The translations under genes were made by a program, and so were the position numbers. A DNA stretch of 41,017 nucleotides from a virus. Its lineage: Duplodnaviria > Caudoviricetes. This document shows, piece by piece, positions 15,857 to 35,030 of the stretch. The notes under the pieces are model-generated. The model saw nothing but the letters and a program-made list of their open reading frames with translations. It was not told the origin of the DNA and did no database searches. Each line of letters opens with the position of its first letter. Within the stretch, counting starts at the first letter, position 1. The stretch covers positions 1-41,017 of the IMG/VR virus record IMGVR_UViG_3300037524_000965; one strand, given 5' to 3'.

Positions 15857-17451
15857 TGGCCATGAATCTCGTCAAGGTCGGCTCTGCCCCAGCTCAGAAG
15901 AAGCCCGAAGAGCTCAGCTGGTGGGAAGCTCTGTCACAGGGTGCTGCCAACATCCCCAGCTCTACTGCCAAGTACGCAGGAGACATCTACACCGCAGTCA
16001 CCAACCCTGTTGACACTGCCAAGGCTCTTGGGCTCAGCGCCGCTGGCGGTGCACAGCGAGCCTTTGAGGCTGTTGGTGGCGAGCGCCTGACTGGTGACAT
16101 TCCCGATTGGGAGGGCACAGCTGCCGCTGACGCCATTGGCGAGTTCTACAAGAAGCGGTATGGCTCTGTCGAAGGTTTCAAGAAGGCTATCGCTGAAGAC
16201 CCCGTTGGTGTGCTCGGAGATGCCTCCTCGGTGCTGGGTGGAGCTGGCCTCGCTGCCAAGGCACCAGGCCTTGCAGGCAAAGTCGCAAGTGTCGCTGGCA
16301 AGGCAGCCAACGCGATTGATCCGCTGATGTTGGCTGGCAAGGCAGCTAGCAAGGCTGGCGGAATGGCCGGCAGTGCAGCAGCCAACGTGCTCGGTCTCAC
16401 CACAGGTGTTGGAGACGTGCCGATCCGTGAAGCCTATCGCGCAGGCAAGGCTGGTGGCCCTGCAGCTGAAGCCTTCCGCCGCAACATCGCTGGGCAGGTG
16501 CCATACGCTGATGTGGTTGACGAGGCTGGTGCTGCTCTGGGTAAGGTCAAGCAGGCTCGTCAGAATGCCTATCAGCAGGGCATTGCCACGACACGTCAGG
16601 CTGCAGGTCAGCTGGACTTCCAGCCTGTGCAGAACGCACTGGGCGATGTTATCGACTCGATGTACGAGCGCGGGTTCGCAAAGTCTGCTTCTTCGGAGCC
16701 GACCCTCAACCAGATGCTCGACATCTTCCAGGAGTTCGACCAGACACCTGGCCTGAAGGACGCCATGGGCTTTGATGCACTCAAGCAGCGCATCGGCGAT
16801 CTGTGGTCAGCCAGCCCTGAAGCCAAGCAGCCAAACAGGGCAGTGACAGCGGTGCAGGACGCGATTCGGCAGCAGATTGTCAAGCAGGATCCCAACTACG
16901 CCAACACCATGAAGGACTACGAGACCGCCTCGAGTCTGATTGATGAGCTGCAGCGCGAGCTGTCACTCAGCCGCAATGCTGCTGAGTCCACCACACTGCG
17001 CAAGCTGCAGTCTGCGGTGCGTGGCGGAGCAAGTCAGGGCTGGAAAGGTCGCGAAGAGCTGATGCGCACCCTGATGCAGGAGAGCGGCAACCAGACACTG
17101 ATGCCAGCCATGGCTGGTCAGGCCATGCAGAGCTATGTGCCGCGTGGCATCATGGGTCCGCTGGCAGGTGCTGGCGGTATCGGAGCAGTGATGGCAGGGC
17201 TGACGCCTGCAGCTATCCCTGCGCTGGCCATGGCATCGCCACGCGCTGTGGCCAATGCTGCCTACTACTCAGGCAAGGCAGCAGCTCCGGTGCAGGCGGC
17301 TGGCAGGGCTGTGGCTCCGGCTGCGAGTGCTGCGTACCAGGCCACTCGTCCAGCTCAGTCGCCTGCACGCGCAGCGGTGGAAACGGGCAGCATTGATGAG
17401 CGCCGTCGCCGCGCTGCCAACAAGCTGAAGCGGATCACTCCAGGCTCCTAA
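15856..17451 (+). CDS. Large internal virion / DNA-transfer protein
   Basis: Ala/Gly-rich helical protein with RYGS.EGFKKAIAEDPVG; last gene of the virion operon. Confidence 0.65.
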   Translation: MAMNLVKVGSAPAQKKPEELSWWEALSQGAANIPSSTAKYAGDIYTAVTNPVDTAKALGLSAAGGAQRAFEAVGGERLTGDIPDWEGTAAADAIGEFYKKRYGSVEGFKKAIAEDPVGVLGDASSVLGGAGLAAKAPGLAGKVASVAGKAANAIDPLMLAGKAASKAGGMAGSAAANVLGLTTGVGDVPIREAYRAGKAGGPAAEAFRRNIAGQVPYADVVDEAGAALGKVKQARQNAYQQGIATTRQAAGQLDFQPVQNALGDVIDSMYERGFAKSASSEPTLNQMLDIFQEFDQTPGLKDAMGFDALKQRIGDLWSASPEAKQPNRAVTAVQDAIRQQIVKQDPNYANTMKDYETASSLIDELQRELSLSRNAAESTTLRKLQSAVRGGASQGWKGREELMRTLMQESGNQTLMPAMAGQAMQSYVPRGIMGPLAGAGGIGAVMAGLTPAAIPALAMASPRAVANAAYYSGKAAAPVQAAGRAVAPAASAAYQATRPAQSPARAAVETGSIDERRRRAANKLKRITPGS

Positions 17452-17516
17452 ATTTGCTGTTGCCTTTTGGTTGGGGCTCAGGCATAAAGGTGTCCATGGG
17501 CAGCGCGGTGCTGCTC
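17451..17516 (+). promoter_or_regulatory. sigma70-like promoter plus conserved 5' hairpin (module 1)
   Basis: TTGCCT(17460)-N17-CATAAA(17483); hairpin GCAGC-GCGGT-GCTGC at 17500-17514. Confidence 0.7.
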
Positions 17517-17540
17517 CGAGCCAAGAAAGGGATAATGCTG

Positions 17541-17714
17541 ATGGCAACATACACAGGCCTTGAGTCCAGCTCAGATCACGAACTCATCACTGAGGCTCGG
17601 CTCTCTGAGAGCAAGTTGGCACAGGAGCTGGCCAAGCGGCTGCTCAAGTGCAAGGCTGATCTCTACAATGCGAATGCCGAGATCGACGATCTCGAGAGTG
17701 AATTGGAAAGGTAG
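17541..17714 (+). CDS. Small coiled-coil hypothetical protein
   Basis: AAAGGGA RBS before ATG 17541; heptad pattern. Confidence 0.6.
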   Translation: MATYTGLESSSDHELITEARLSESKLAQELAKRLLKCKADLYNANAEIDDLESELER

Positions 17715-17719
17715 GACGC

Positions 17720-18082
17720 ATGACTGCCAACAACGAACGCAGGCTGCGGCGCCAGTTTGCCAATGCCTTCCCAGGGCAGGTGTTCTGGGTGGAGAACGGC
17801 GGAGGTGGAACCTTCGGGTTCCCTGACGCGCTGCTGGCGATGGATGGGCACCTTGTGCCGATCGAGCTCAAGGCCAGCTATGGCATGCTGCGGCCTGTCC
17901 AGAAGATCGTGCACCTGCGGCTGGCTGAGCACGGTGTGCCCAGCTTTGTGCTGATCTCCGAAGGTAACAAGTACCGCCTGATCCACAGCGGAACAGCGGA
18001 CAGTGTCTGGTTTGTTAACATGGCTGATCTGCCGAGGCACATCCGTGACCTGAGCTGGCAGCCCAAGGAGGAAGTTGCGTAA
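17720..18082 (+). CDS. VRR-NUC / PD-(D/E)xK nuclease (probable Holliday junction resolvase)
   Basis: NE...GFPD.L......IELK...LRPVQ..H motif. Confidence 0.8.
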   Translation: MTANNERRLRRQFANAFPGQVFWVENGGGGTFGFPDALLAMDGHLVPIELKASYGMLRPVQKIVHLRLAEHGVPSFVLISEGNKYRLIHSGTADSVWFVNMADLPRHIRDLSWQPKEEVA

Positions 18083-18261
18083 TGGAGCAGTTTGTCCTAG
18101 CACTGATGGTTGCTCTGTCTTCTCCGAACGAGAAGCTGGAGCGCTGCAAGTGGGAGCCTGACAAGCCTCGCTGGGAGTACAACGGGTGCGCTGATCGCGA
18201 AGGCAAGGCCGACAAGCCTGGCAAGGGTGACAGCGATGGAAAGTCGAAAGGAACCGACTGA
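18082..18261 (+). CDS. 59-aa hypothetical protein with hydrophobic N-terminus (not in the ORF track)
   Basis: MEQFVLALMVALSSPNEKLERCKWEPDKPRWEYNGCADREGK...; AAGGAGG RBS; coupled at both ends. Confidence 0.6.
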   Translation: MEQFVLALMVALSSPNEKLERCKWEPDKPRWEYNGCADREGKADKPGKGDSDGKSKGTD

Positions 18262-18920
18262 TGAAGAGCATCGCACTAGCAGCCCTGCTGCTCGCCGGCA
18301 CCGCACTAGGTGCTCAGGGAGCAACATTCAGCTTCACCACTGACAATGCCAGCTTCAGCGGCACGGTCGGTGGCACCAATAGGTCCTCGACGAGCTCAGG
18401 CGACAATGCCAGCTTGCGCTGGGGGCAGAACGTTGGCTACGGCCAGTCTTCATTCACATGGGATGGTTATGATGGAACCGTTGAAGCTATCGAAGGGCTT
18501 GCCACGAACTTCACGTTTGGTGAGATCAAGCACCGCAATGAACCTATTGGTTCTGGCACTGGTATTCGCAGCACTGTACTTAACTTTGAGCTGGGTCTTC
18601 TCGGGGTTGTTGTCCCTGTTCAGCTGAACATCCGTCACACCGAGACACCCAACAACGACTCGCTGAGCTGCTGCGCTGACATCGTCTCGATGAGTTCGGT
18701 GCTGAACAAGGTGATCGAGAAGGATGGCTTCCTGGCCACGCTGTCGATCACTCCGGTGTTCTTCTCAACACCTGAGAAGAGCTCAAGGTCGAAGCTGTTC
18801 GTTGGCTCATTGACCTACAACCGCATCCCGGAGATTCCGGTGCCCGCAGCCCTGCCGCTGTTCGTTTCTGGACTGGCAGGGATCGGGTGGCTGGCAAAGA
18901 GCCGTCGTCGCAGAGTCTAA
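18261..18920 (+). CDS. Secreted protein with VPLPA-CTERM (PEP-CTERM-type) sorting signal; THxN/choice-of-anchor K-like domain
   Basis: Signal peptide MKSIALAALLLAGTALGAQG-A; KHRNEPI and HTETPN motifs; C-terminal IPVPAALPLFVSGLAGIGWLAKSRRRRV. Confidence 0.85.
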   Translation: MKSIALAALLLAGTALGAQGATFSFTTDNASFSGTVGGTNRSSTSSGDNASLRWGQNVGYGQSSFTWDGYDGTVEAIEGLATNFTFGEIKHRNEPIGSGTGIRSTVLNFELGLLGVVVPVQLNIRHTETPNNDSLSCCADIVSMSSVLNKVIEKDGFLATLSITPVFFSTPEKSSRSKLFVGSLTYNRIPEIPVPAALPLFVSGLAGIGWLAKSRRRRV

Positions 18921-18940
18921 TCCCTGCTCTGCGATACTTG

Positions 18941-18972
18941 GCCGGTAGCCTAATCAGCTACCGGCTCTTTTT
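18941..18972 (+). terminator. Rho-independent terminator at the convergence of the two gene blocks
   Basis: GCCGGTAGC-ctaatca-GCTACCGGC followed by TCTTTTT. Confidence 0.8.
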
Positions 18973-19142
18973 ATGAGTGGGACTGGAGAGCGGCTGAGCC
19001 CGTTGCCGCCGCACTTCTCACAGACACGCCACCAAGTGTCCGGCTGCGTTGAGCTCATGTACCAGCCAGCCACATTGGCTGCTGGGTCCCGGATAACGCG
19101 CTCCTCCTTGCCGCTGCCATGGCACGCTGAGCACAGGTCCAT
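18954..19142 (-). CDS. Small zinc-finger protein (DnaJ-type CxxCxGxG repeats)
   Basis: CSACHGSG and CEKCGGNG; ATG overlaps the gcrA stop; GGAGGAG RBS. Confidence 0.7.
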   Translation of the reverse strand: MDLCSACHGSGKEERVIRDPAANVAGWYMSSTQPDTWWRVCEKCGGNGLSRSPVPLIKRAGS

Positions 19143-19633
19143 CAGGCTCTCCTCCGACCGGGCAGCGGCCTGAACACAATGGCCTTGTGGCCAGGGCACC
19201 AGGCGTCGTTGCCTTGCGTCGCCAGCCCGCAGAACAGCCACCTGTGCCGGGCGATCTCCTTGACTGGGTAGCGACACTGGTTATGGCGGAGCTGCAGCAG
19301 CGGGATCCCCTTGGAGCCGACCAGCAGGACTGGCTCCATCTCGGTGACAATGGGCTGGTCGGCTAAAATGGTCGCTGGAGAGCGTTCTGCCGGGGGAGTA
19401 GGCTCCCTAGGGGTGTCCTCGGGAGGCCAGTGGAGGACCACGGCAGGCCTGTCGGCGGCCCTCTTCCGAGGGTAGGCAGCGCGGCGCTCAATGTCAACAC
19501 CCTTCTGGCGTGCCCGAGAGATGATTCCGGCCACCACATTCCGGGTCACCCCGAGCGCCACCGCTATCTGCCGAGCAGTCTCGCCGGCATTGAAACGGGC
19601 CACTACCTGATTGATCAGCTCTTCACGCGGCAT
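19142..19633 (-). CDS. gcrA: GcrA cell-cycle regulator homolog
   Basis: N-terminal HTH G.TARQIA.ALGVTRNVVAGIISR; C-terminal LLQLRHNQCRYPV...FCG......WCPGH..I.F signature. Confidence 0.9.
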   Translation of the reverse strand: MPREELINQVVARFNAGETARQIAVALGVTRNVVAGIISRARQKGVDIERRAAYPRKRAADRPAVVLHWPPEDTPREPTPPAERSPATILADQPIVTEMEPVLLVGSKGIPLLQLRHNQCRYPVKEIARHRWLFCGLATQGNDAWCPGHKAIVFRPLPGRRRA

Positions 19634-19812
19634 CACTTTTCCTCCTTGGGCTGCCACTGACCACACCACCAATGCTCCTGCGTTCCGGGGAACGGCGGAG
19701 GGTTCATGCGGCACACGGTGTAATCGCGACCGCCAATTGTTGCGCTGTAGCAGAACCTGCAGGTCCTGCACAGGCGCTCCTGCTTGAAGTGCAGCGTGTC
19801 AAGGTTGTTCAT
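19633..19812 (-). CDS. Small Cys-rich metal-binding protein
   Basis: CRTCRFC...C..NPP......WWCGQW; coupled at both ends. Confidence 0.65.
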   Translation of the reverse strand: MNNLDTLHFKQERLCRTCRFCYSATIGGRDYTVCRMNPPPFPGTQEHWWCGQWQPKEEK

Positions 19813-20081
19813 CAAACGAACCTCTTGGTGATTGAGAACAGCTTGTCCTTGTGCCATGTGGTGCGGAACACCTCAATGTCATATGGCAGTTCCTTGGCGA
19901 TGATGGTGTTCTCCAGCCACGCCAGCAGCGCGTTGAAGTTCTTCTTGGTAATGCGCTTGTCGCTCTTGTAGAACTCTTCCTTGGTAGCACGGTCACCAGA
20001 TGGCATAGCCTTGATGAATGCTGCCTTGATTGAGTGCGGGTTGATCTTGAGCTGGTTGATCAGATCTTCATTCAAACTCAT
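19812..20081 (-). CDS. Hypothetical protein
   Basis: GAGGAGG RBS; fills the operon gap. Confidence 0.65.
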   Translation of the reverse strand: MSLNEDLINQLKINPHSIKAAFIKAMPSGDRATKEEFYKSDKRITKKNFNALLAWLENTIIAKELPYDIEVFRTTWHKDKLFSITKRFV

Positions 20082-20083
20082 AC

Positions 20084-21751
20084 TCAGTCCTCCTCTTCGG
20101 TTAACATAAGCCGGATCTTGTCCAGCGCCAGCGAAGCGATGTCTTGCTTGTCGATCAGGTTCTTAATGATGTGGTGGTCGATGGACTTGTCAGCCATAAT
20201 GTCGTAGTAAGTGACTGAGCCCAGTGTGCCAAGACGGTGCACCCGGTCCTCGCTCTGCTGCCGGTCCAGTGACGAGAACGAGTTGGAGTAGTACACCACA
20301 TCCCTGCACCGCCCCTGCAGGTTCAACCCAACGCCACCAGCCGCAGGGTTAGACACGAAGAACCGTGCCTCTCCCGACATGAATCGCTTCACAGCCTCTG
20401 CGCGTTCGCCATGTGCTGTGCCGCCGTAGTAGGTGACGACTGAATCATCGCCGTACTCCTTGCGAAGCCTGTGGGCGATACGCTCAATGTCGTTGCGGAA
20501 GCGTGCCCACACAATGACCGGGCCATTGATCTGGTCGATGATGTTGGACAACACACTCAGCCGTTCTTCAGAGAACTCTGTGAGCTCGCCGTCCTCGCCA
20601 GTGGGCAGGTAGCCCGACAGGATCTGCTGCAGCCGCACAAGGCTGGCGGCAACTGTGGCTGAGGTCACTGCCTGCCCATCCACAAAGGTCATCAGCTCGC
20701 GCTTCATCTCCTTGTACTTCTTGGCGGTGCTCTCGGACATGGCGTAAGGCACCTTGATAAACTGCTTCTCTGGCAGTGTGAGCACCTCGTCCTTGGTGAG
20801 CCGAGAAGCGTGATCTGCGATCTTCAGGTACAGGTCATCAATGTTCCTGCTGCCAACCACCTGCCGCATCTCGAAGCCACCCATGATGCAGTAGCGTGAG
20901 CGGAATGACCACAGGTTGGCACAGGCCAAGATAGACTTGTCAAGGAACAGGAACTGTGAGAACATGTCCTCCACATTGCGTGCAATCGGGGTGCCAGTCA
21001 GGATGCGCCTGAACTTGCACTTGGCACCGAGTGTGATGGCTGAGCGCGTTCTGCTGGCGGACTGGCTCTTGATGTAGTGCGACTCGTCAACCACAAGCAG
21101 CACCTGCCCATCATTGGCCTCGATGAACTCGGTGACTGCTTCTGAGCCTCTGCCAATCAGCGACTCAATGTTGATGCACAGCACATTCAGCGCATCAGGC
21201 TCGTTCATCTTGGCACGCTTGGGCATGCCACCCTTCCAGAGCAGGATGTTGATGTTGTGGGCTGAGTCCCAATGCTGGGGGATCTGCTCGTTGGCCCATG
21301 CCCTGTGCACACCATTGGGTGCTAGCACGACCATGGCCTTGATCATGTTTGATGCGTACAGCTTGCCCGCCTCAGCGATCAGCAGCGCGGTCTTGCCCAG
21401 ACCCATCTCCCAGAGCACAGCATAGGCTTTCTTGCCCAGCATCTTGTCAAGGGTCTCGAGCTGGTAGTCGCGCAGCTCAACCTTGGGGTTGTAGGGGATC
21501 TGGCTGGCCGGCAGCAGAGGGTAGCGATCAATCAGCGCCTCAAACACATCATCTGTGCCCTCAATCACCTTCCACTCAATGTTTGGCACACTCTTGAGCA
21601 GCGCGATGTTGTCCTTGGTGGCTCTGAACTTGACAGACCTGTCAGCGTTCCACTCCTTCTTGCCACGCAGTGTGGTGACCTGCGAGATGAAGCTGATGGA
21701 GAACGGTCCATAAGCCACACCGTGGTCGCCAGTGATCTCAACCCTAATCAT
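20084..21751 (-). CDS. SNF2-family (SF2) helicase/ATPase
   Basis: LRDYQ, EMGLGKT, VVDESH, LTGTP, GGVGLNLQ and QSEDRVHRLG motifs. Confidence 0.92.
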   Translation of the reverse strand: MIRVEITGDHGVAYGPFSISFISQVTTLRGKKEWNADRSVKFRATKDNIALLKSVPNIEWKVIEGTDDVFEALIDRYPLLPASQIPYNPKVELRDYQLETLDKMLGKKAYAVLWEMGLGKTALLIAEAGKLYASNMIKAMVVLAPNGVHRAWANEQIPQHWDSAHNINILLWKGGMPKRAKMNEPDALNVLCINIESLIGRGSEAVTEFIEANDGQVLLVVDESHYIKSQSASRTRSAITLGAKCKFRRILTGTPIARNVEDMFSQFLFLDKSILACANLWSFRSRYCIMGGFEMRQVVGSRNIDDLYLKIADHASRLTKDEVLTLPEKQFIKVPYAMSESTAKKYKEMKRELMTFVDGQAVTSATVAASLVRLQQILSGYLPTGEDGELTEFSEERLSVLSNIIDQINGPVIVWARFRNDIERIAHRLRKEYGDDSVVTYYGGTAHGERAEAVKRFMSGEARFFVSNPAAGGVGLNLQGRCRDVVYYSNSFSSLDRQQSEDRVHRLGTLGSVTYYDIMADKSIDHHIIKNLIDKQDIASLALDKIRLMLTEEED

Positions 21752-24576
21752 GTCAAGTCTCCAAGGTACTTGATTGCATCAACGCGCAGCATTCGGAAGT
21801 CAGAAGGGCACTTGCCCCTCACGAGGTATAATGCCCTGCCAGCCTTGCCTCGGTCAACAACTTCCTGTCCGAGCTTGGGGAAGCGCCAGCGATCGATCTT
21901 GGCGAAGATCTCGCCAGTGTCGTCCTGCATGAACATATTGAGTGTGGCAGTTGGGCCATCAACCTTGTAGCCTCGGCGAGCGATGTTGACTTCCTCGTTC
22001 TCATCACGCGGTGCAATCTTGGTGACCAAGGCTAGCACCCGGAACTCGCCTGAGTCGCCCTGCTTGATGTCGCCCACATTGGTGATCTTGCCATTCAGCA
22101 CAACCTTCGATTCAGCCAGCAGCTGGCTGCCACGCTCGCTGATTGGGTACAATGTGTCAATCGGGGTGACAGCGTTGGCCAGTCGCTTCTCAAGAACAGC
22201 ACGTAGGGTCTTGCCGGTATCGCGAGACGTCATGATCTCCTTGATGTAGGCCGGACCGATTCCCTTGACGTTTGAGAGCGGGCCAACCAGCACCTTCTTG
22301 CCATTGACCAGATTTGTCGACCAGCGAGCAGCTGACAGCTCACGGTCGAATGGGATGTACTCAATGCCTTCGCGTGACAGCTCGCGCAAGATGGCGATCT
22401 GCTTCAGTTGGTCGTCGGTGTAGTCCAGCGTGGCTGCTGCGAACTCAACTGGGTGGTGAGCCTTGAACCACATGCAGTAGTAGGACACATACGCATAGGC
22501 CACAGCGTGCGCCTTGTTGAAGCACCACGCACCGTAGGCGCACAGGTCGTCCCACATCTTGTCGAGAACGTGATCGGAGATCCCCTTGGCGCGTGCACCT
22601 GCCTTCCAGCGGTCACCGTACTGGTCAAAGAACTCCTTGCCCAGTGACTTGCTCATTGCCTTGCGCAGCGCAGTGACGTCTTCCCAGCTGAGCCCACCAA
22701 TGTTGCGCCCGATGTTCATCACCTGCTCCTGATAGCAGATGACGCCCAGCGTGTCGTTGGTCTCTGGCTCGAAGGCTGGATCTGGGTAGCTGACTGGCTC
22801 CTTGCCAGACATGCGCAGCACCCAGCTCATGGTGCCACCTGAAGCCATTGGACCTGGTCGTGCCAGAGCTGTGATGGACACAATGTCGTTGAACTGAGAC
22901 ACCCTCACCTGCCTGCAGATGGACTGTAGCGAGGTGCCTTCAAACTGGAAGATGCCAGAGAAGTGCTGCTTGTTGATCACATCATAGGCTGCAGCGTCGT
23001 CCAGCGGAATGGTCTCAAGAAACCGCCTGTTCCTGATGCCCAGCAGCTCCAGCGTGCGCTCGAAGATGGAAAGCTGAGTCAGTCCCAGCGCGTCGATCTT
23101 TAGCAGGTTGAGCTTCTCAGCGTCGTACTTGTCGCACTGCGCAACACCACTGGCATCAACAGCCACATGATCAAGGATCTGTCCGCGCGAGATCAGCAGC
23201 CCTGCTGAGTGCTGGCTGTGGCCATAGGGGTGGCCTTCCATCTCAGAGACGCGGGTGATGAATGGATACTTCTCAACCAGCTTCTTGCCCTGCGCAGTCT
23301 CGTTGAATGTGTCGCTCATCTTCTGGAGCGCGCGGCTGTCGCCTGAGGACCGCTTGATGATTGAATCGGTGACTGAGCGGATCTCGTAGTCAGGGATCTG
23401 AAGCTCCTTGGCAGCCATGTTGAGCAGGGAGCGTGGCTGCAGCATTGTGATGGTGCCGAGGCGCGCAACGTGATCCTCGCCATACATCTGGCGCGCATAC
23501 TTGAACACCTCGTCGCGGTGATCAGCTGAGAAGTCGATGTCGATGTCGGGAAGGTCCTTGCGGTTGATGTCGATGAACCGTTCAAAGATCAGCCCGTGCT
23601 CCAGCGGATCCACTGTGGTAATGTCGAGCAGGTAGCACACCAGCGAGCCGCATGACGAGCCGCGTGCTGGCCCAACGATCATGCGCTCCTTGGCCCAGCG
23701 GATCATGCCTGACACAATGTAGAAGTAGTCCTCGAACTTCTTCTTTGCGATCAGGTCCAGCTCATAGCTCATTCGCTGCATGTACTCAGGTCGCGACAGG
23801 TCACAACCCTTCTGCTGCGCACCTTCAAGGCACAGCGCCAACAGCGTCTTGGACTTGGTGGGTGTGAACATCTCACCAGGGCTGAGCTCAACGCCAGAAG
23901 CCACCTCAAGCAGTGTGTCCCTGTGCACCAGAGCCTTGTCCAGCTCTGTGGCCTGCAGTGGCAGCTGAGCCAGGGATGCGCGCCATTCAGCTTCAGTGAG
24001 GATGTGCCGAGGGTAGGTCACCGAGTCAGCCCGTGCTCCTGCCAGCAGCTGGTACGGCACATCGTCAGAAGCCCTAGGGAAGCGATTCGCAGAGGTGGCT
24101 AGGAGGGGCCAGCCCGACCCCATGGCCTTGTCCAGCACCATTGCAGTGGTGGCCGGCGACAGACTCTGATACAGACCTGGAGTCGCAGGGCAGAGGAACA
24201 GGTTGGCCGGTCCAGCAATGGCATTCACCCTGCCCAGTGCCACAGCCTCGTAGGCCTGATCGTAGGTGAGCTGCCAGCCCTGCCCGGAGGCCACCTGCAC
24301 GAGATTGTTGATGTCCCTTAGGGAGTGCCTAGGGAAGAACGACCATTCGTCCAGCGGCCTGCGCCTGCCCTTCAGCTCGTTGCCTACCGCGAGGGTAACG
24401 CCGAACGCTGGCTTGAATCCCAGCTTGCGGCAGGTGGCTTCCCACTGGACGAATGAGAATGTTGAGTTGAGGTCAGCGATCGGCAGCTGCCGGTAGCCAC
24501 ACTCAATCAGCCTATCCGCCACAGCACGCAGCGAGCCATAGGCAGTGCGGAAGCTATAACCGGACCTTACTACCAT
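21748..24576 (-). CDS. dnaE: DNA polymerase III alpha subunit-like (family C)
   Basis: GPARGSSCGSLVCYLLDIT, FERF, LPDIDIDF, HSAG, LLKIDALGL, GIFQFE, YQEQVM and FNKAHAVAY motifs; degenerate PHP N-terminus. Confidence 0.95.
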   Translation of the reverse strand: MVVRSGYSFRTAYGSLRAVADRLIECGYRQLPIADLNSTFSFVQWEATCRKLGFKPAFGVTLAVGNELKGRRRPLDEWSFFPRHSLRDINNLVQVASGQGWQLTYDQAYEAVALGRVNAIAGPANLFLCPATPGLYQSLSPATTAMVLDKAMGSGWPLLATSANRFPRASDDVPYQLLAGARADSVTYPRHILTEAEWRASLAQLPLQATELDKALVHRDTLLEVASGVELSPGEMFTPTKSKTLLALCLEGAQQKGCDLSRPEYMQRMSYELDLIAKKKFEDYFYIVSGMIRWAKERMIVGPARGSSCGSLVCYLLDITTVDPLEHGLIFERFIDINRKDLPDIDIDFSADHRDEVFKYARQMYGEDHVARLGTITMLQPRSLLNMAAKELQIPDYEIRSVTDSIIKRSSGDSRALQKMSDTFNETAQGKKLVEKYPFITRVSEMEGHPYGHSQHSAGLLISRGQILDHVAVDASGVAQCDKYDAEKLNLLKIDALGLTQLSIFERTLELLGIRNRRFLETIPLDDAAAYDVINKQHFSGIFQFEGTSLQSICRQVRVSQFNDIVSITALARPGPMASGGTMSWVLRMSGKEPVSYPDPAFEPETNDTLGVICYQEQVMNIGRNIGGLSWEDVTALRKAMSKSLGKEFFDQYGDRWKAGARAKGISDHVLDKMWDDLCAYGAWCFNKAHAVAYAYVSYYCMWFKAHHPVEFAAATLDYTDDQLKQIAILRELSREGIEYIPFDRELSAARWSTNLVNGKKVLVGPLSNVKGIGPAYIKEIMTSRDTGKTLRAVLEKRLANAVTPIDTLYPISERGSQLLAESKVVLNGKITNVGDIKQGDSGEFRVLALVTKIAPRDENEEVNIARRGYKVDGPTATLNMFMQDDTGEIFAKIDRWRFPKLGQEVVDRGKAGRALYLVRGKCPSDFRMLRVDAIKYLGDLT

Positions 24577-25057
24577 CTTCCTTGACCTTCTTCCACTGCG
24601 CTAGAGCTCTTGCTCTTGCGGCGTCGCGCTGCTCCTGAGAACTCCAACGAGCCACCAAGCAATTCTTCGACGGCTTGGTTCCTGCTTTTGCCTTGGCCAT
24701 ATTTGCACGAGCCTCTGGAGAGTGCTTATAGCCAGTCAGCGTTTTGCGAATCTTCTCTCTGAATGTTGGGTGCCGAGCAAGCCTGTCCTGCATGTTGTCT
24801 TTCTGTGTTCCGAAATACAAATGCTTAGGGTTCACACACCATCCATTATCACAGGTATGGCAAATCAAGCCTCTTAGTTTTGTTCCACTCCACCTTGGAA
24901 TCTTCTTGACATTCAGATGAAACGAAAGCCTATGTGCAGTCCATTTCTTGCCTCTGTGCCGAACAAGCATGGGGCGCTTTGTGTTCAGTTTCCCTTTCGA
25001 ATTAATGCAGGCAATGCATCCTGTCTCTAAGAGAACCGTTTCGATTGGGAAGATCAT
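24554..25057 (-). CDS. HNH homing endonuclease with NUMOD3-like DNA-binding tail
   Basis: AHRLSF...ICHTCDNGWCVNPKHL..GTQKDNMQD; G.KHSPEARANMAKAK.G. Confidence 0.9.
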   Translation of the reverse strand: MIFPIETVLLETGCIACINSKGKLNTKRPMLVRHRGKKWTAHRLSFHLNVKKIPRWSGTKLRGLICHTCDNGWCVNPKHLYFGTQKDNMQDRLARHPTFREKIRKTLTGYKHSPEARANMAKAKAGTKPSKNCLVARWSSQEQRDAARARALAQWKKVKEDGSKVRL

Positions 25058-26646: not shown

Positions 26647-26647
26647 G

Positions 26648-28848: not shown

Positions 28849-29209
28849 CCGGGAGTGCGTGGTAGCGCGGCTCGCTATCAGTTTCTTCCTGAAGAGCCTT
28901 CTTGGTCATCTCAGCCAGCGCGATGTGCCTTGCCGAGCGGCGCTCAAGACTCTCTTCAGACTCAGCCTTGAGCCTGCTGCGCATGATGCGTGCAGCATCT
29001 TCCCTGTGGCGCTCGCTCATCAGCTTGTTGCGCGCATCAAGGATGATGCTAAGCGTAGTGGCAGCTTGCCGAGAGATGGTTTCGTATCCCGAGACTGAGC
29101 GGATCATCCGGCCCAGCATCATGATGTCACGCTCGCTGAGCGGAACCATGACAAAGTCATCTCCATCGTTCTCAGCAAGGTGCACAGTGGCAGGTGGCAA
29201 CGTTCTCAT
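28832..29209 (-). CDS. Hypothetical protein
   Basis: GAGGTG RBS; overlaps with neighbouring genes. Confidence 0.6.
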   Translation of the reverse strand: MRTLPPATVHLAENDGDDFVMVPLSERDIMMLGRMIRSVSGYETISRQAATTLSIILDARNKLMSERHREDAARIMRSRLKAESEESLERRSARHIALAEMTKKALQEETDSEPRYHALPDGSHD

Positions 29210-29388
29210 TCGATCACCTCAAAGGTTTGGCGTGTTCCGTCATCCTTGTGGGGGTGAATCTCCTTCACCTCCCATCCTGGGTAAGTTGAGGACACCCACT
29301 GGGGGATGTCCTCCTGCTTCATTGCGCTGATCATCAACCACCGCCTGGATTGGTTGTTGGTGATGACCACATCGAAGAACTGCCGCAT
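29206..29388 (-). CDS. Hypothetical protein
   Basis: GAGGAGG RBS; coupled at both ends. Confidence 0.55.
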   Translation of the reverse strand: MRQFFDVVITNNQSRRWLMISAMKQEDIPQWVSSTYPGWEVKEIHPHKDDGTRQTFEVIE

Positions 29389-29768
29389 CATACCTCCTCT
29401 GGTTCGCTGGCCGGCAGCGAGATCTCGTCCTCAACCGAAGGCAGATCAAAGTCGCTCAGCTCGATCTCACTCCCGTGATCAAGGTTGAGCTGGAACTGAT
29501 CGCGCCACTCAGTGAACGCATATCCACGCTCGCTCTCCTGCCACTCCTCAGAGCGATTGTCGATGTACTCATCGATGGCAGTGTAGATGTTGTTGGCCCA
29601 CTCGTGCGCCTCGTCGATGATCTCGTTGATCTCGCTGAGCGCAGCGTTGTACTCAGCCACCTCGTCAGCGATCTTCTGGTGCTGGCGCTCCAGCTTGTCA
29701 TAAGCTTCCTGGTAGCGCTTGATGATGTCGTCGCGATCCTTGTGATCGCTGGCAGAGAGCTTCTTCAT
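29388..29768 (-). CDS. Acidic helical hypothetical protein
   Basis: AAAGGA RBS; first gene after promoter module 2; Y.DNRSEEWQESERG motif. Confidence 0.75.
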   Translation of the reverse strand: MKKLSASDHKDRDDIIKRYQEAYDKLERQHQKIADEVAEYNAALSEINEIIDEAHEWANNIYTAIDEYIDNRSEEWQESERGYAFTEWRDQFQLNLDHGSEIELSDFDLPSVEDEISLPASEPEEV

Positions 29769-29785
29769 GGTTCGTTCCTTTCATT

Positions 29786-29840
29786 GGAGCACCGCGCTCC
29801 GATAGCCACTATGGCTGAGTTGATGGAAGAAGTCAACAAT
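29786..29840 (-). promoter_or_regulatory. sigma70-like promoter plus conserved 5' hairpin (module 2)
   Basis: Minus strand TTGACT(29836-29831)-N17-CATAGT(29813-29808); hairpin GGAGC-GCGGT-GCTCC at 29800-29786. Confidence 0.8.
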
Positions 29841-29843
29841 CAA

Positions 29844-29969
29844 TTAGGCAAGCAGATACGCGACTGTCATCAGCACCAACCCCAAGAACCACAGGAAGAA
29901 CAGCACCGACAGCATGAACCCAAACAACAGGGCTGCAGCCTTGATGGTGTCAATCATGAACTTTTGCAT
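29844..29969 (-). CDS. 41-aa membrane peptide (not in the ORF track)
   Basis: MQKFMIDTIKAAALLFGFMLSVLFFLWFLGLVLMTVAYLLA; GGAGG RBS; TGATG coupling. Confidence 0.6.
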   Translation of the reverse strand: MQKFMIDTIKAAALLFGFMLSVLFFLWFLGLVLMTVAYLLA

Positions 29970-30199
29970 CACAGACCCTCCACCTGCTGGCGCATCGGCA
30001 GCTTGAGTGTGTTGTAGCGCACCATTGTGTTGTAGAGGCTGTTGGCATACTGGTAACCACTCAGCTTGTAGGCATTGCGCCTGCGCTTGACAAAGCCTTG
30101 CGCTTCAAGCAGTGCGTATGCTGTGCAGGCTCTGTCCTTAGTGCGGTAGAGCTTGACACACCACCGCATTGCATCGGTCTGATAGTGAAACGGCTTCAT
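29969..30199 (-). CDS. Basic hypothetical protein
   Basis: GAGGAGG RBS; coupled to neighbours. Confidence 0.6.
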   Translation of the reverse strand: MKPFHYQTDAMRWCVKLYRTKDRACTAYALLEAQGFVKRRRNAYKLSGYQYANSLYNTMVRYNTLKLPMRQQVEGL

Positions 30200-30408
30200 C
30201 ACTTAGTTCCTCCTCTTACCATTCGCTTGATCAGCGATTCAAAGTTGCGCATGCCACTGACTGATCTCGATGAGCACGACAGCACAACATTGCGTTGCGT
30301 GCCATCGGGCAGTTGAAGTGTCAACACACGGTGCTTGCGTTGACGCTCATTGATGATCCTGATGCCATAGCTCTTGATCACCTCGTCGTACTCGCTCTTG
30401 CGGATCAT
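30199..30408 (-). CDS. Small basic protein, possibly HicA-like / dsRBD-like fold
   Basis: helix-G-strand-KH-strand-PDG-strand-S.S.S..G..N-helix pattern; ATGA coupling. Confidence 0.45.
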   Translation of the reverse strand: MIRKSEYDEVIKSYGIRIINERQRKHRVLTLQLPDGTQRNVVLSCSSRSVSGMRNFESLIKRMVRGGTK

Positions 30409-30770
30409 TGGCACTTACCCATCGCCACACTTGTGTCGTAACCAGAGCCAAGTATCAGCGCACCAGATCCCTTGCCCCAAACGATCACGACATCCATTTT
30501 CCCAACGCCTGGAGCAGTGACAGAATAATCAACACGCTTCTGTCCTTTGTCATTGCGAAGCATCTGCACGCCTGTAGCGACGATGTTGTTGTTGTCTCCT
30601 CGCACTGTGCCATCTGAATGGTAAGAGGTCTTGATTGGGCGCAGGAGCTTCTGCTCACCATTTGAGTCCTTGCTGATGTACGTGCTAAACTGGCAAGTCA
30701 CAATTGGCTCAGCTGCTGCCGGCGATGTGAGCGCAGCCACTGCTGCGAGCAAGAGGATTGGGTTACGCAT
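30405..30770 (-). CDS. Secreted hypothetical protein
   Basis: Signal peptide MRNPILLLAAVAALTSPAAA-E; beta-rich mature part with Cys near both ends. Confidence 0.7.
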   Translation of the reverse strand: MRNPILLLAAVAALTSPAAAEPIVTCQFSTYISKDSNGEQKLLRPIKTSYHSDGTVRGDNNNIVATGVQMLRNDKGQKRVDYSVTAPGVGKMDVVIVWGKGSGALILGSGYDTSVAMGKCQ

Positions 30771-30987
30771 TGGGGTTGTTCCTGTTGCGGATGTGCCAGA
30801 TGACCTTGATCACGTTGAAGTGGATGGACGCAGCGACAAGGCCAGCAATGAAGATGAAGATGCCGAGCAGGCCACTCACAAAGATGCCAACAAACCAGCC
30901 CACAACGATGCCAACAAACATCCAGCCATCGCTAGCTGCCTTGGCACGCTCGTAGGCATCAACCCCAGACTCAATCTCGTCAACCAT
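30763..30987 (-). CDS. Small membrane protein (two TM segments)
   Basis: AAAGGGA RBS; long hydrophobic stretch; first gene after promoter module 3. Confidence 0.7.
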   Translation of the reverse strand: MVDEIESGVDAYERAKAASDGWMFVGIVVGWFVGIFVSGLLGIFIFIAGLVAASIHFNVIKVIWHIRNRNNPNA

Positions 30988-31005
30988 CTCAGTTCCCTTT
31001 CTTCA

Positions 31006-31066
31006 GGAGCACCATGCTCCGGGTCTATTAAGCGCCACATGGCGCAGTAAAGCAACAACTCTTTCA
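31006..31066 (-). promoter_or_regulatory. sigma70-like promoter plus conserved 5' hairpin (module 3)
   Basis: Minus strand AAAGAGTTG-TTGCTT(31055-31050)-N17-CTTAAT(31032-31027); hairpin GGAGC-ATGGT-GCTCC at 31020-31006. Confidence 0.8.
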
Positions 31067-31069
31067 AGG

Positions 31070-31104
31070 TGCCCCACGCCCAGCTGTTCAGGCTGTCGTG
31101 GGGC
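31070..31104. terminator. GC-rich stem-loop downstream of the SSB-like gene
   Basis: GCCCCACG...CGTGGGGC with inner CAGC/GCTG pairing; no clear U-tract. Confidence 0.45.
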
Positions 31105-31209
31105 TGCAGTCGCGTGAGTGGAGCTTAGCTGGGACTCACCACTGCCTGTCGGTGTTATTCGGGCTACCCCATGCTGCCCAGGACACCGCCGACTGGTCCC
31201 TTTAGCTCG

Positions 31210-31980
31210 TCAGAATGCCTCCTCGTCCTCGGCCACATGCGCCATCTGCGACTGCTTGCGTGCCAAGCCACCCTCGCACTGCTCGTAGAAGTCGCGTGCC
31301 TCCTGCAGCAGCTTGCCGGTCGGATCAGCTTCAAGCACCGTCTGACCAGGTGTGGTCTTCCATGCAGACCAGTCACCTGAGCTGTTGCTCACAGACACAG
31401 TGCTCAGCGTCCACACCTTGTAGAAGATCGGCGGGCGGAACTGCTTGCCCGACGAGGCCACAGCTGTCATGTTGGTGAGGCGCGTCATCAGCTGACGCGA
31501 GGACTTGAGTGCAGTGGAGGCCATCGGGATCATGGACCGCCGGCCACCAGCCGTCAGGTTCAGCACAGCCCACTGTGCCGACTCACTGATGATGTTGCCG
31601 TTGGGCAGGATGGGCCGACGCTTCTCATCGGGCACGGTCTGCTCAAGGACCGCGACATTGTCACCATGGTTCATCACCAGACCCTTGCCGCTGGCGCGCG
31701 GAGCCCACTCAAGGAACACTCGTGAGTAGTGGCACAGCACCACCTGGATCTCGTCCCAGACATCGCCATTTGCCACATCGCAAATCTGTCCTACGCTGGC
31801 TCCAGCGATGTACTCAGGGCGACCCTTGTTCAGCTGAGGCGACAAGCCCTGCAGAATCGTCAGGCGCGGCAGCAGGACGTCACGCGACGTGACATTCTCG
31901 AAGCCTGCACCTCCCATCTCTGCCAGCTGGTCAGCCAGCACCACTGCGTTGTTTTCAACCTTGGCTACGTTCTTGCTCAT
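31210..31980 (-). CDS. Putative single-stranded DNA-binding protein
   Basis: GFENV...D..LPRL.ILQ.LSPQ N-terminal motif; acidic-aromatic tail AEDEEAF; AAAGGA RBS. Confidence 0.65.
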   Translation of the reverse strand: MSKNVAKVENNAVVLADQLAEMGGAGFENVTSRDVLLPRLTILQGLSPQLNKGRPEYIAGASVGQICDVANGDVWDEIQVVLCHYSRVFLEWAPRASGKGLVMNHGDNVAVLEQTVPDEKRRPILPNGNIISESAQWAVLNLTAGGRRSMIPMASTALKSSRQLMTRLTNMTAVASSGKQFRPPIFYKVWTLSTVSVSNSSGDWSAWKTTPGQTVLEADPTGKLLQEARDFYEQCEGGLARKQSQMAHVAEDEEAF

Positions 31981-31997
31981 GTGCTTGGTTTCCTTTC

Positions 31998-32885
31998 TCA
32001 AGCTGCTTCTTCTTCAACATAGGCACCACCGTACTTCCTGATCATGTCCTCGATGAACTTGACAGGGTTGTCCCACACATCCTCCTTGTCGCTAAGGAAC
32101 AGCGCAGGAACATAAAGGACCTCGTCGTTGCCAGACATCTTCTTGATGATGTCGGAGGCATGCTTGGTCCAAGTCTGGTAGTTGTCGAGCGGCCAAGATC
32201 CAGCATGGCCACCTTCTGTGCTGTACAGCTGCTGGTTGATCAGCGAGTACATGATGCCGCGCGACACCGCAGCGTGTGTGAGCATGAAGTCGGCGCGAGC
32301 AAGATCAAGCGGCGCAGTGTCCAGCGTCACCCACGACATCAGTGCCATGTCGCTGCGGTGGTTGCCAAGCGCACAGCCAACGCGCAACGTCACAGGCCGC
32401 AGCGTGCTCAGCACGCGGGTGAGTGCCAGCAGCGCGATGCCACGCTTGCGGAGGACGTACTCAGCGACACCACCAGAGCTGGTCAGGTCGGCGTAGATGG
32501 TGAGCGGAGCCACCTGCGACAGATGGCGCTGCCGGCGACGCATGTTGAGCGGATTGCCCGCGAGGAAGGCACCAACGTTGGGCGCACCGCCACAGACGTC
32601 GTTGATGGTGCGGAAGGCAGTGGTCTTCTCGTGCTGGCGCTCCTCAAGCTTCGCGAGCAGCTTGTCGGTCTCAGCGACCGTGCGCACCAGGCCGCGACGC
32701 ACAGCGTTGCGCGCAGCTTCAACGTCGCCCAGACCATTGGCGTGCCAAGCTCCCCAGGTCTGAGGAGCCCAGTGGTTGATGGTGTCAGTGAAGTCTGACA
32801 TGTCGTGCCACAGCACCTGCCGGACCTCAATGGCGTTGCGGGTGACATCACCAGCGTCGAATTTGACCACAGACTTGATAGGCAT
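31998..32885 (-). CDS. vWA/MIDAS-like partner of the AAA+ ATPase
   Basis: DV.GG.PNV.AFLAG.P..MRR followed by TIYADLTSSGGV (MIDAS-like); AGGAG RBS before ATG 32885; adjacent to the AAA+ gene. Confidence 0.6.
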   Translation of the reverse strand: MPIKSVVKFDAGDVTRNAIEVRQVLWHDMSDFTDTINHWAPQTWGAWHANGLGDVEAARNAVRRGLVRTVAETDKLLAKLEERQHEKTTAFRTINDVCGGAPNVGAFLAGNPLNMRRRQRHLSQVAPLTIYADLTSSGGVAEYVLRKRGIALLALTRVLSTLRPVTLRVGCALGNHRSDMALMSWVTLDTAPLDLARADFMLTHAAVSRGIMYSLINQQLYSTEGGHAGSWPLDNYQTWTKHASDIIKKMSGNDEVLYVPALFLSDKEDVWDNPVKFIEDMIRKYGGAYVEEEAA

Positions 32886-32898
32886 CGGTATCTCCTGT

Positions 32899-32962
32899 GC
32901 CAGCACCACGCTGGCCATGCTAGTAAAGCTGATTCTGGCAACCAAGGCAACAAGAATTTTTG
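32899..32962 (-). promoter_or_regulatory. sigma70-like promoter plus conserved 5' hairpin (module 4)
   Basis: Minus strand CCAAAAATTCTTG-TTGCCT(32950-32945)-N17-TTTACT(32927-32922); hairpin GCCAGC-GTGGT-GCTGGC at 32915-32899. Confidence 0.8.
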
Positions 32963-32987
32963 GGGGATCCGGTTGTCCGAATCCCCC
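32962..32987. terminator. Stem-loop just downstream of the AAA+ gene
   Basis: Minus strand GGGGGATTCGG-acaa-CCGGATCCCCC; followed by the promoter A-tract rather than a U-tract. Confidence 0.5.
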
Positions 32988-32995
32988 GGATTTCC

Positions 32996-34501
32996 TCAGT
33001 TTTTGATGAGGTTGATCTGCTCCGGCGTCAGGCCAGAGAGGTAAGTGAGCTCAGCCGCGCGCTCGGCAGAGAAGCCAGCCGCCACCAGCGCAGCCCCAGC
33101 CACTGTGGCGCGGGGAGAGATGATGATCTTGAGCCCAGCCTTGCGTGCGGAGGCGCGTGCACGCTGCACCTGCTTGGCCCAGTCAGCGTTGCCGCACATG
33201 GCCGCCTCAAGAGCCTCGTCGTAGGCCCATGCCAGCTTGACAAAGCGGTCCAGGAAGGCGCCATCCAGCTTGGTGCGGCCGATGTAGTCGGCAGTGGCAC
33301 CCAGACCGTAGGTGTTGGCCGCGCCGAGGATGATGCAGTCCTTGTGGCGCTCAATCTGGTCGCCATTCGGCAGGCTCATGCCACCGTTGGCCAGCGCAGC
33401 ATTGAGCACCAGCAGGGCGGAGGCATCGCCCGAGTCGAGCTCGTCCAGCAGCACCACACCACCGTCGCGATAAGCCTTCACGAACGGGGTGTCGTGGTAG
33501 CGGCCATTGGCATCCACAAAGCCCACCAGCTCGTGCGGCATGCTCATCGCACCCTGAAGGTAGAAGCTGAGCCCCAGAGCCTTGGCAGCAGCGTGAGCAG
33601 CGTGGGTCTTGCCAGAGCCTGCCGGACCGGCCAGCCACACGTTGAGCGGATTGCCCGAGGCGGTGCGCGCAGCCATGATGGCCAGCAGCTCAGGGAACTG
33701 CTTGTGGTTGAGGCCAGCGAGCTCGGTGCGCTCCTCGGTGGCAGCGTTGAAGATGATCGTGCGACCCTGCTCCTTGGCCTGCTCGGCAGCGGCCCACGCA
33801 GTGGCGGTGGCGGCGGTCTGCTCAGCCAGCAGCTGCTCAAGTTGCTCGATGCGAGCGTTGTCGGTGGTGACGAACACCTCCACTTCCTTCTTCACTCCTT
33901 CGGTCTTGAGAGGCACGATGCGGTACACAGCCAGCGCAGTCATGCGCTTCTCGTCGGCCCAGTCGCGCAGCTGGCCGCGCACCACCGCAGCGATGTGCGC
34001 GTGGAAGACCATCAGGTACTTGTTGCCGTCCGACCATGCGCGGCGGAAGCGGCGCGGGTGCGTGGAGGTGATGGTGTTGAGCGACTTGTGCTCGCCCGGA
34101 TAGCGGCGGATCATCTCGCCGAACGGCACCTGCTCAGCGTCAAGACCCTCCTTGTGAAGCGCACGGATGATGCTCTGCAGCAGCGTGCCTTCGCCCTGTT
34201 GACGGCCAGTGACGTTGAGCAGACCCTGGCAGTAGGCGTAGTCCTTGGCGAGCACGTGGGCCAGAGCCTTGACGGCGCAGTCGTTGTCCTCGCCATGAGC
34301 TTCGCTCTGCTGGTCGATGGAGCGCTCTTCCTCGGTGGCAGCCTTGCGCGGCGCACGGACAAGGTTGTCGATCAGGCGCGACACCTCAGCGCGATCAACG
34401 TGCGCAGGAGTGTAGTTGTGCTCGCGCTTCGCCAGCAGGTCGAGCAGGTAGGTCTGCTGCTTCGGGGTGACGTCGGCGGCGAAGGTCCAGGTGGTGGTCA
34501 T
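32996..34501 (-). CDS. MoxR/CbbQ-like AAA+ ATPase with N-terminal putative papain-like peptidase domain (501 aa)
   Basis: Walker A GPAGSGKT, Walker B VLLDELD, AANT.G.G, LDGAFLDRF and SPRA; N-terminal NDCAVKALA...HIAAV..GQLRD; GGAG RBS before ATG 34501. Confidence 0.85.
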   Translation of the reverse strand: MTTTWTFAADVTPKQQTYLLDLLAKREHNYTPAHVDRAEVSRLIDNLVRAPRKAATEEERSIDQQSEAHGEDNDCAVKALAHVLAKDYAYCQGLLNVTGRQQGEGTLLQSIIRALHKEGLDAEQVPFGEMIRRYPGEHKSLNTITSTHPRRFRRAWSDGNKYLMVFHAHIAAVVRGQLRDWADEKRMTALAVYRIVPLKTEGVKKEVEVFVTTDNARIEQLEQLLAEQTAATATAWAAAEQAKEQGRTIIFNAATEERTELAGLNHKQFPELLAIMAARTASGNPLNVWLAGPAGSGKTHAAHAAAKALGLSFYLQGAMSMPHELVGFVDANGRYHDTPFVKAYRDGGVVLLDELDSGDASALLVLNAALANGGMSLPNGDQIERHKDCIILGAANTYGLGATADYIGRTKLDGAFLDRFVKLAWAYDEALEAAMCGNADWAKQVQRARASARKAGLKIIISPRATVAGAALVAAGFSAERAAELTYLSGLTPEQINLIKN

Positions 34502-34523
34502 TTGAGTCAGCTCCGGTTTGGGC

Positions 34524-34590
34524 GGTAGCACCGTGCTACCTGAGAGAGAGTAAACGCCAAATCGTGACAGGAGGCAACAACTATTTTTGG
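34524..34590 (-). promoter_or_regulatory. sigma70-like promoter plus conserved 5' hairpin (module 5)
   Basis: Minus strand CCAAAAATAGTTG-TTGCCT(34577-34572)-N17-TTTACT(34554-34549); hairpin GGTAGC-ACGGT-GCTACC at 34540-34524. Confidence 0.85.
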
Positions 34591-34602
34591 GTGGCTGGGG
34601 GA

Positions 34603-34941
34603 TCAATCCCCCAGCCCGATCCCCCACAGCTTGAGGTTGGCCAGCTGCGCGAAGTTGCGCGGCTCGTACGAGATCATGTTAGCCTTGTTGAAGCGGCCAG
34701 AGCGATCGTCGCGGCCGAAGTTGACGCTGATGTGGCCATCGCTCTGGAGGCGCACATGCGCCAGCCAGGGCTTGTTGGAGGTGACGTAGCGGCCCACAAA
34801 GCCAGCGAGGTACATGCCGTAGTCGGTGCGGTAGCAGCGCACCTGAGTGGGCTGACCCTTGATGATGACGGTGATCTCGCCGATCTCGTCGCCACGCTCG
34901 TTGCGGCCCAGCGGGAGGTAAGTGTCGAGGAGAGCCTTCAT
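34603..34941 (-). CDS. Hypothetical early protein (first gene of the leftward block)
   Basis: AAGGA RBS; flanked by promoter modules 5 and 6; a stem-loop overlaps its stop codon (34593-34616). Confidence 0.7.
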   Translation of the reverse strand: MKALLDTYLPLGRNERGDEIGEITVIIKGQPTQVRCYRTDYGMYLAGFVGRYVTSNKPWLAHVRLQSDGHISVNFGRDDRSGRFNKANMISYEPRNFAQLANLKLWGIGLGD

Positions 34942-34960
34942 TTTCCATTTCCTTCTGTCA

Positions 34961-35030
34961 GGACAGCACCGCGCTGTCCATGAGAAGGATTAAACGCCAT
35001 TTCGTGACAAAAGAAAACAACTATTTTTGG
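34961..35030 (-). promoter_or_regulatory. sigma70-like promoter plus conserved 5' hairpin (module 6)
   Basis: Minus strand CCAAAAATAGTTG-TTTTCT(35017-35012)-N17-TTTAAT(34994-34989); hairpin GGACAGC-GCGGT-GCTGTCC at 34979-34961. Confidence 0.85.

Follow-up and report, generated by a model that had tools for sequence, protein, structure and literature searches.

The element described here is a small stem-loop with the apparent consensus GC-RNGGK-GC, found directly behind six promoter-like sites in the virus record IMGVR_UViG_3300037524_000965 (41,017 bp, bounded by direct terminal repeats; the whole stretch is referred to as the window). It is a real and apparently undescribed 5'-leader RNA element that is widespread in phages, and its closest described counterparts are hairpins that stand near the promoters or message starts of bacteria and phages. 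In the accessible text of PMC13551039, the Aca1 RNA motif is an inverted repeat of ~20 nucleotides (nt), with a bulge between its two 3-bp stems. It lies directly behind the transcription start, leaves ~20 nt to the start codon and occurs at several operons for each regulator. The Aca2 repeat has a TTCG core (PMC6765145, in the part available). Canonical Csr proteins, according to the available text of PMC4005645, tolerate no base change in A(N)GGA, and AGGGA pentaloops are high-affinity sites. RppH and RNase E require single-stranded 5' ends (PMC3997798, in part), and the PeSLs of the T4-type phages RB49 and phi1 are described in the available portion of PMC2839356 as polyG/polyC terminators of upstream transcription.

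By the features compared, the present hairpin would behave like a 5' stabilizer or an Aca- or Csr-type docking hairpin, yet it appears to lie outside those families. Like the Aca1 and Aca2 motifs, as far as the accessible texts describe them, it is a covarying hairpin of ~20 nt that lies behind the start of a strong phage promoter (transcription starts are predicted from promoter-like sequence throughout) and ~20 nt before the start codon, and it may head several operons. Unlike them, it shows neither a TTCG core nor a bulged 3+3 stem; moreover, the Aca systems, in the same texts, combine a DNA operator in the promoter with an aca gene in the operon, whereas the genes behind the present hairpin are unrelated to each other. 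The strings GGTGC and GGUGC are absent from the searched Aca supplement text of PMC13551039, where the consensus was compared by text and not by figures. PHROG and Pfam scans of the downstream genes, most of which lack an assignment, gave no acr or aca match, with no dedicated anti-CRISPR (Acr) library searched, and neither family is among the PHROG matches of the window as a whole.

With the CsrA/RsmE sites, A(N)GGAX, the hairpin shares a short, C-G-closed loop of variable length that holds a purine, a free base and GG, and four loci of a relaxed scan carry AGGGA loops. However, U or G follows the GG in place of the required A, the first base is often G, and the overlap with the ribosome-binding site is lacking, since in 66 of 69 sites the stem does not include the Shine-Dalgarno (SD) sequence. 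The TwoAYGGAY motif (RF01731) differs in carrying two loops on a basal stem, as described in the available part of bioRxiv 10.64898/2026.09.22.753630. Stabilizing 5'-terminal stem-loops of the RppH/RNase E pathway, as described in part, likewise place the stem a few bases from the (here predicted) 5' end and leave the SD sequence free; the known ones are not defined by loop sequence, whereas GC-RNGGK-GC is kept across lineages. PeSLs resemble it in forming repeated promoter-plus-hairpin cassettes before small genes of unassigned function, and three promoters of the window are likewise preceded by AT-rich tracts and strong hairpins. In contrast to PeSLs as the available text presents them, the present hairpin lies downstream of its promoter and joins a variable stem to a conserved loop. 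Rfam 15, searched at gathering score, gave no match in the window and one weak, unrelated match among 20 other motif loci. In its letters the motif may also recall ANTAR, ops, Chi, T-box and 5S rRNA sequences. No published description of the motif was found, and a catalogue of viral structured RNAs or the supplement of PMC5737381 could hold one.

Six promoter-hairpin cassettes in one phage genome

The core AGCRYGGTGCT has six exact matches in the window, at 17502(+), 29798(-), 31018(-), 32912(-), 34537(-) and 34975(-), against 0.19±0.42 expected from shuffled versions of the window, and none of 100 shuffles reached six. All six are intergenic and share the orientation of the gene that follows. 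A promoter-like site, TTKNYT-17-YWTANW, precedes each core by 8-13 nt, and an ATG follows it at 16-25 nt, with a purine-rich, SD-like stretch between hairpin and start codon (Table 1). An earlier note on this DNA, made from the sequence alone, had described just such a layout, and the genome scan bears it out. The paired but differing outer stems are likewise as that note gave them; the chance that two extra Watson-Crick pairs would form at all six sites is ~8e-8. Predicted starts fall 7-8 nt past the -10, so that the stems would begin at +1 to +3, and the predicted folding probability is ~0.4 for the copy at 31018 but 0.93-1.0 for each of the other five.

A scan of the window with this type of promoter expression returned nine distinct sites: six with the hairpin, two antisense inside genes and one without a hairpin. 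Six of the seven gene-facing sites thus carry the element, and the exception, a probable late promoter before the small terminase gene, provides an internal contrast. In a relative that is ~95% identical (run X5), the two of the six copies that were compared (hairpins 2 and 5) are unchanged, while adjoining bases differ.

Distribution among phages and bacteria

The distribution of the motif is far wider than this one phage. In IMG/VR, a generic promoter-plus-core pattern found 46 loci, most of which combine a canonical TTGACA-17-TATAAT-like promoter with this hairpin on stems of other sequence. A looser pattern found an estimated ~520 stretches (at least 124), versus ~160 (at least 120) for the reversed core, these counts being dereplicated by flank sequence and not by lineage, with one jumbo-phage clade over-represented. 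With the -35 taken from this phage itself, the pattern matched 45 loci, among them one clear promoter hairpin (L109). Carriers range from records of 35 kb to 355 kb; five copies occur in G106 and two in G100, and many genomes of up to 355 kb hold a single promoter copy. The open reading frames behind 82 sites fall into 74 unrelated protein clusters. Among 70 downstream proteins, 14 have PHROG matches, six of them named (Erf, helicase, Clp-like protease, SSB, Hsp20 and CsrA-like), and a histone-like Hc1 is a further product; these named products look like early or abundantly made proteins. Well-formed promoter-hairpin copies were also seen in metagenome-assembled contigs of diverse phyla, either prophage or host (L437, L439, L441, L449, L470 and L481).

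Several narrower searches returned little. The exact core was sought in 31 records (28 capsid relatives and three pattern matches); the capsid relatives gave two matches, both inside genes, and among seven of these records inspected whole or in part only G074 has a promoter copy. In cultured phages, the promoter-plus-pentaloop pattern occurred in 2 of 12 records, equal to the control count. Searches of the leaders by blastn gave chance matches only, and tblastn with a jumbo-phage downstream protein gave none.

Covariation, strand and loop

Among the matches listed, which were selected on promoter and core only, 55 of 101 unique sense sites, versus 16 of 96 in the control, have four or more pairs in the five positions that adjoin the core. 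The five outer pairs next to the core form in 81, 69, 73, 68 and 59 of 99 unique flank pairs, against permutation means of 51, 36, 39, 41 and 43; for each of the five, none of 3000 permutations reached the observed count, and the sixth pair is at chance. In the reversed-core control, only the first two pairs lie slightly above expectation (17 and 58 of 3000 permutations). All six pair types are present in the outer stem, and the GC/GC closing pairs, fixed by the search patterns, are constant in the collection by design. At the first outer pair G·U outnumbers A·C by 27 to 1, and over the first four pairs by 56 to 19, versus 34 to 48 in the control. Because the outer pairs covary and G·U exceeds A·C, the strand that folds is the sense strand, as RNA or, less likely, as non-template DNA. 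With the orientation bias and the lack of an Rfam family, this also supports the earlier note in preferring an RNA-type, sense-strand structure to a double-stranded DNA (dsDNA) operator and in not recognizing the motif.

As for the loop, that note had drawn a possible YGG triloop closed by an R-U pair, and here it needs correction: the pair has an ensemble probability of only 0.27-0.65, and G replaces U in 10 of 69 sites of the wider family. A pentaloop, RNGGK, describes it better, and the wider consensus, as far as sequence comparison can tell, is GC-RNGGK-GC on a variable stem. The same note's remark that the loop is like but distinct from the CsrA ANGGA loop holds, every window loop being RYGGU with U, not A, as its final base. 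With loop positions 1, 2 and 5 freed, 39 stems were found among 98 unique sites, and the first base is a purine in 38 of these; loops in this relaxed scan include GCGGU, AUGGU, ACGGU, GUGGU, AAGGG, AAGGU, GAGGG and AGGGA. The promoter-proximal hairpins with AGGGA pentaloops (L526, L532, L581 and L594) would fit high-affinity CsrA sites. When the GG was freed, it was still present in 12 of 19 sites with a stem and SD sequence. When the whole loop was free (112 of 120 loci analyzed), RNGG occurred in 8 of 19 sites with promoter, stem and SD sequence, versus 2 of 72 stemless rows. Since RNGG is so distributed and the first base is almost always a purine, the loop sequence appears to be selected, not incidental. 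Hexaloop forms occur in G090 and in the cultured phage MJing1, and penta- and hexaloop forms both retain R…GGK.

The geometry is equally regular. Over 69 sites, the core lies a median of 13 nt from the -10 (standard deviation 1.9), within an offset bounded by the search pattern to 6-17 nt, and a median of 24 nt from the start codon (standard deviation 7), so that it is tied more to the promoter than to the start codon. The first paired base falls 6-11 nt past the -10 in 58 of the 69 sites, which would place the stem at about +1 to +4, and the linker behind it is A/C-rich. Because the position is tied to the promoter and the SD sequence is free, a positive 5'-end element fits better than occlusion of the ribosome-binding site.

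Search for a reader

No small gene common to 10-12 largely complete motif-bearing genomes was found by BLAST and phmmer at the sensitivity used, which could miss divergent readers. The earlier note had put forward the small basic 69-aa protein encoded in the window as a speculative reader. Its predicted fold is HicA-like (model with predicted local distance difference test, pLDDT, of 82; top full-length match HicA3, weak, with a template-modeling (TM) score of 0.57 and E 0.25), and it is kept in the ~95% relative. Its profile matches just one of the 65 other records with the motif, but also two of 11 capsid relatives in which the promoter hairpin is lacking. It is thus not co-distributed with the motif, and a role as the reader is not supported. 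As a separate observation, this protein and that of L853:1716-1934 are HicA-like proteins without an annotated adjoining antitoxin, and phage MJing1 has a HicA-like gene beside the same acidic phrog_4068 gene, with related GAUGG loops in its leaders.

The 112-aa, all-β protein of the first early gene fared no better. Its 37 homologues share an invariant FGRDDRSGRF stretch, and a confident model (pLDDT 87) found no fold match (best Z 4.4). Being neither CsrA-like nor matched to any fold, and with the core at none of 11 homologue loci, it was rejected as the reader.

CsrA-family genes turned up in two of the 76 records searched, or in one of eight when only near-complete records are counted, and none was found in the window. 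Canonical CsrA, of host or phage, was rejected as the reader of RYGGU loops given this distribution and the absence of A(N)GGA from the loops. In G088, one of the two records with a CsrA-like gene, a promoter hairpin whose loop, AGGAU, is of the canonical Csr type stands alongside one with AUGGU. Arc was likewise rejected as the basis of the hairpin class, being absent from all 66 hairpin records, the window included, and present only in the three records (L145, L149 and L172) in which the core is a repeated palindrome. In those three, the Arc genes are paired and the palindromic operators, which are repeated, contain the core letters of the hairpin, in both orientations in two of the records.

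Competing explanations

The explanation that we tentatively favor, and that may well prove right, is that the hairpin stabilizes the message from its 5' terminus and that a conserved host factor recognizes the loop. GC-RNGGK-GC, conserved on the sense strand just behind predicted σ70 promoters, would fold at the 5' end of early messages and shield the end from 5'-dependent decay by RppH and RNase E, and binding of the loop by a conserved host factor would raise early gene output. A reader is postulated because 5'-end protection alone leaves the conservation of the loop unexplained, and a host reader is favored since the motif occurs in many phage lineages among which no common gene was found. 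The first candidates are a CsrA-fold paralogue or the 30S subunit, since the loop is one base from ANGGA and partly resembles an SD hexamer.

A number of points weigh against this explanation. The transcription starts, folding in vivo, stabilization, and both the existence and the host origin of the reader are things we infer. A 5' stem stabilizes mRNA whatever its loop, which leaves the conservation of the loop resting on the postulated reader. In the free-loop scan, other loops stand at 11 of the 19 sites. Homologues of the 112-aa gene, likewise first behind strong promoters, lack RNGG as well as the core at all 11 loci, several of which have different 5' hairpins. The tight offset from the -10 was bounded by the search pattern, the collection was not dereplicated by lineage, and most motif-bearing records are fragments, which limits the negative searches for a reader. 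In one record, G089, a CsrA-like gene lies directly behind a hairpin copy (L218), which favors a phage reader there. A stricter pattern found 64 matches in GTDB genomes (596 Gb), 21 of them with stems and some apparently real; the same pattern fits 23 of 124 listed viral loci, or ~96 when scaled, in a collection that we infer to be much smaller than GTDB. The scarcity in host chromosomes is itself odd for a signal read by the host, and it is unexplained.

A phage-encoded RNA-binding regulator, Aca1/Aca2-like or of CsrA fold and divergent between phages, could instead bind the hairpin and co-ordinately lower early genes, which we regard as unlikely, if a credible prospect. It would account for the layout shared with the Aca1 RNA motif as given in the accessible text of PMC13551039, for the six copies at early-type promoters with none at the probable late one (and five in G106), and for the CsrA-like genes of G089 and G088. 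It would have to be reconciled with the rarity of CsrA and HicA-like genes and the lack of a shared small gene, with an SD sequence that is nearly always free, with the single promoter copy of many large genomes, and with the intolerance of canonical Csr proteins to changes in A(N)GGA (PMC4005645, in part). Alternatively, there may be no reader, RNGGK closed by GC/GC being an intrinsically stable or fast-folding loop that arose convergently for 5'-end protection. The frequency of 5' hairpins with other loops at the same position, the predicted 5'-terminal stem and the failure to find a reader gene are consistent with this. One loop family nevertheless dominates across unrelated phages (the 8 of 19 sites above) yet is scarce at bacterial promoters, R…GGK is kept in penta- and hexaloops as would be expected of a loop that is read out, and we know of no extra-stable loop of RNGGK sequence; the explanation is distinctly unlikely.

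More doubtful still is a transcription signal addressed to RNA polymerase or Nus factors, whether it helps promoter escape, as nascent RNA or as a hairpin in the non-template DNA, or serves antitermination in the manner of nut and put sites. The tight distance from the -10, the fact that G·T pairing is equally possible on the non-template strand, and the possible terminator hairpins directly before three window promoters speak for it. The downstream units are short, however, each with its own promoter; no second conserved box was seen in the A/C-rich linker, the window has no N- or Q-like family among its PHROG matches, and a hairpin of 15-25 nt is larger than the open bubble. Very improbable is a palindromic dsDNA operator over +1 for an Arc/Mnt-type (ribbon-helix-helix) repressor. 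The three Arc records do carry repeated copies of the same core letters as palindromes around Arc genes, but those have fixed A/T flanks and lie over the promoter, whereas the hairpin class is strand-specific and free of Arc, and its strand bias, G·U excess and freely covarying flanks are not expected of an operator.

Genome context and neighboring genes

The window encodes, by PHROG matches, portal, capsid and ejection proteins, a DnaE-type polymerase and terminase; no integrase is among the matches. No close cultured relatives were found, the top DnaE match being 38% identical. This phage occurs in wetland and sediment metagenomes. Because it has a GcrA-family gene, an alphaproteobacterial host is suggested; GANTC sites are depleted in its genome (94 versus ~152 expected from base composition). 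The 77-aa gene of Table 1 is deleted in the ~95% relative, where the region past 30408 is also replaced. The AAA_5 (CobS/MoxR-like) ATPase and its DUF7192 partner have a separate hairpin promoter each. Three of these six promoters have directly 5' of them a strong hairpin followed by an AT-rich tract, which recalls the terminator-plus-promoter arrangement of PeSLs. In RNA run X8, two short, near-identical contigs (29234-29472 and 32559-32728) occur at a small share and give no evidence on starts, which contigs cannot show.

Table 1. Coordinates of the promoter-hairpin sites and of the genes discussed in the text (window positions unless a record is named).
Feature	Position	Strand	Details
Promoter-like site 1	17460..17488	+	-35 TTGCCT, 17 nt, -10 CATAAA
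Hairpin 1	17500..17514	+	Loop GCGGU; stem to 17498-17516 with one G·U; ATG 17535, 59-aa gene of no assigned function
Promoter-like site 2	29808..29836	-	TTGACT-17-CATAGT
Hairpin 2	29786..29800	-	Loop GCGGU; ATG 29768, acidic phrog_4068 protein
Promoter-like site 3	31027..31055	-	TTGCTT-17-CTTAAT
Hairpin 3	31006..31020	-	Loop AUGGU; ATG 30987; lowest copy in predicted ensemble (~0.4)
Promoter-like site 4	32922..32950	-	TTGCCT-17-TTTACT
Hairpin 4	32899..32915	-	Loop GUGGU; ATG 32885, DUF7192 protein
Promoter-like site 5	34549..34577	-	TTGCCT-17-TTTACT
Hairpin 5	34524..34540	-	Loop ACGGU; ATG 34501, AAA_5 ATPase
Promoter-like site 6	34989..35017	-	TTTTCT-17-TTTAAT
Hairpin 6	34961..34979	-	Loop GCGGU; ATG 34941, 112-aa protein of unnamed family
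Promoter-like site without hairpin	37886..37915	+	TTGCCT-18-TATAGA; probable late promoter before small terminase gene
Hairpin and AT-rich tract 5' of promoter	~34593-34616	-	
Hairpin and AT-rich tract 5' of promoter	~32962-32987	-	
Hairpin and AT-rich tract 5' of promoter	~31071-31104	-	
GcrA homologue	19142-19771	-	Phage-encoded
77-aa gene	29969-30202	-	
69-aa HicA-like protein	30199..30408	-	Reader candidate of the earlier note; predicted α-β-β-β-α fold
AAA_5 ATPase and DUF7192 partner	31998-34501	-	
112-aa all-β protein	34603-34941	-	First early gene
Phage CsrA-like gene	L218/L734:1227-1412		
Phage CsrA-like gene	L735:1480-1776		
Phage CsrA-like gene	L495 near 14270	-	

Implications

In a bolder form of the favored explanation, which we consider somewhat unlikely, phages of different lineages share GC-RNGGK-GC as a 5' tag, with which podoviruses of 35 kb as well as jumbo phages of 355 kb would put their early messages ahead of those of the host. 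Its reader would be some conserved component of bacteria, be it a CsrA-fold paralogue, the 30S subunit or RNA polymerase. Nine conserved letters across hundreds of contigs of unrelated phages, scarce in bacteria, imply that the opening 25 bases of early transcripts are under a shared pressure. The identity of the reader would bring to light either a previously unnoticed means by which hosts recognize RNA, exploited by phages, or RNA-binding regulators of phages that form a new family. The element is short and modular and, should this bolder form hold, could be used as a portable expression enhancer. In uncultured phages, the motif would mark early promoters and, with them, candidate host-takeover genes.

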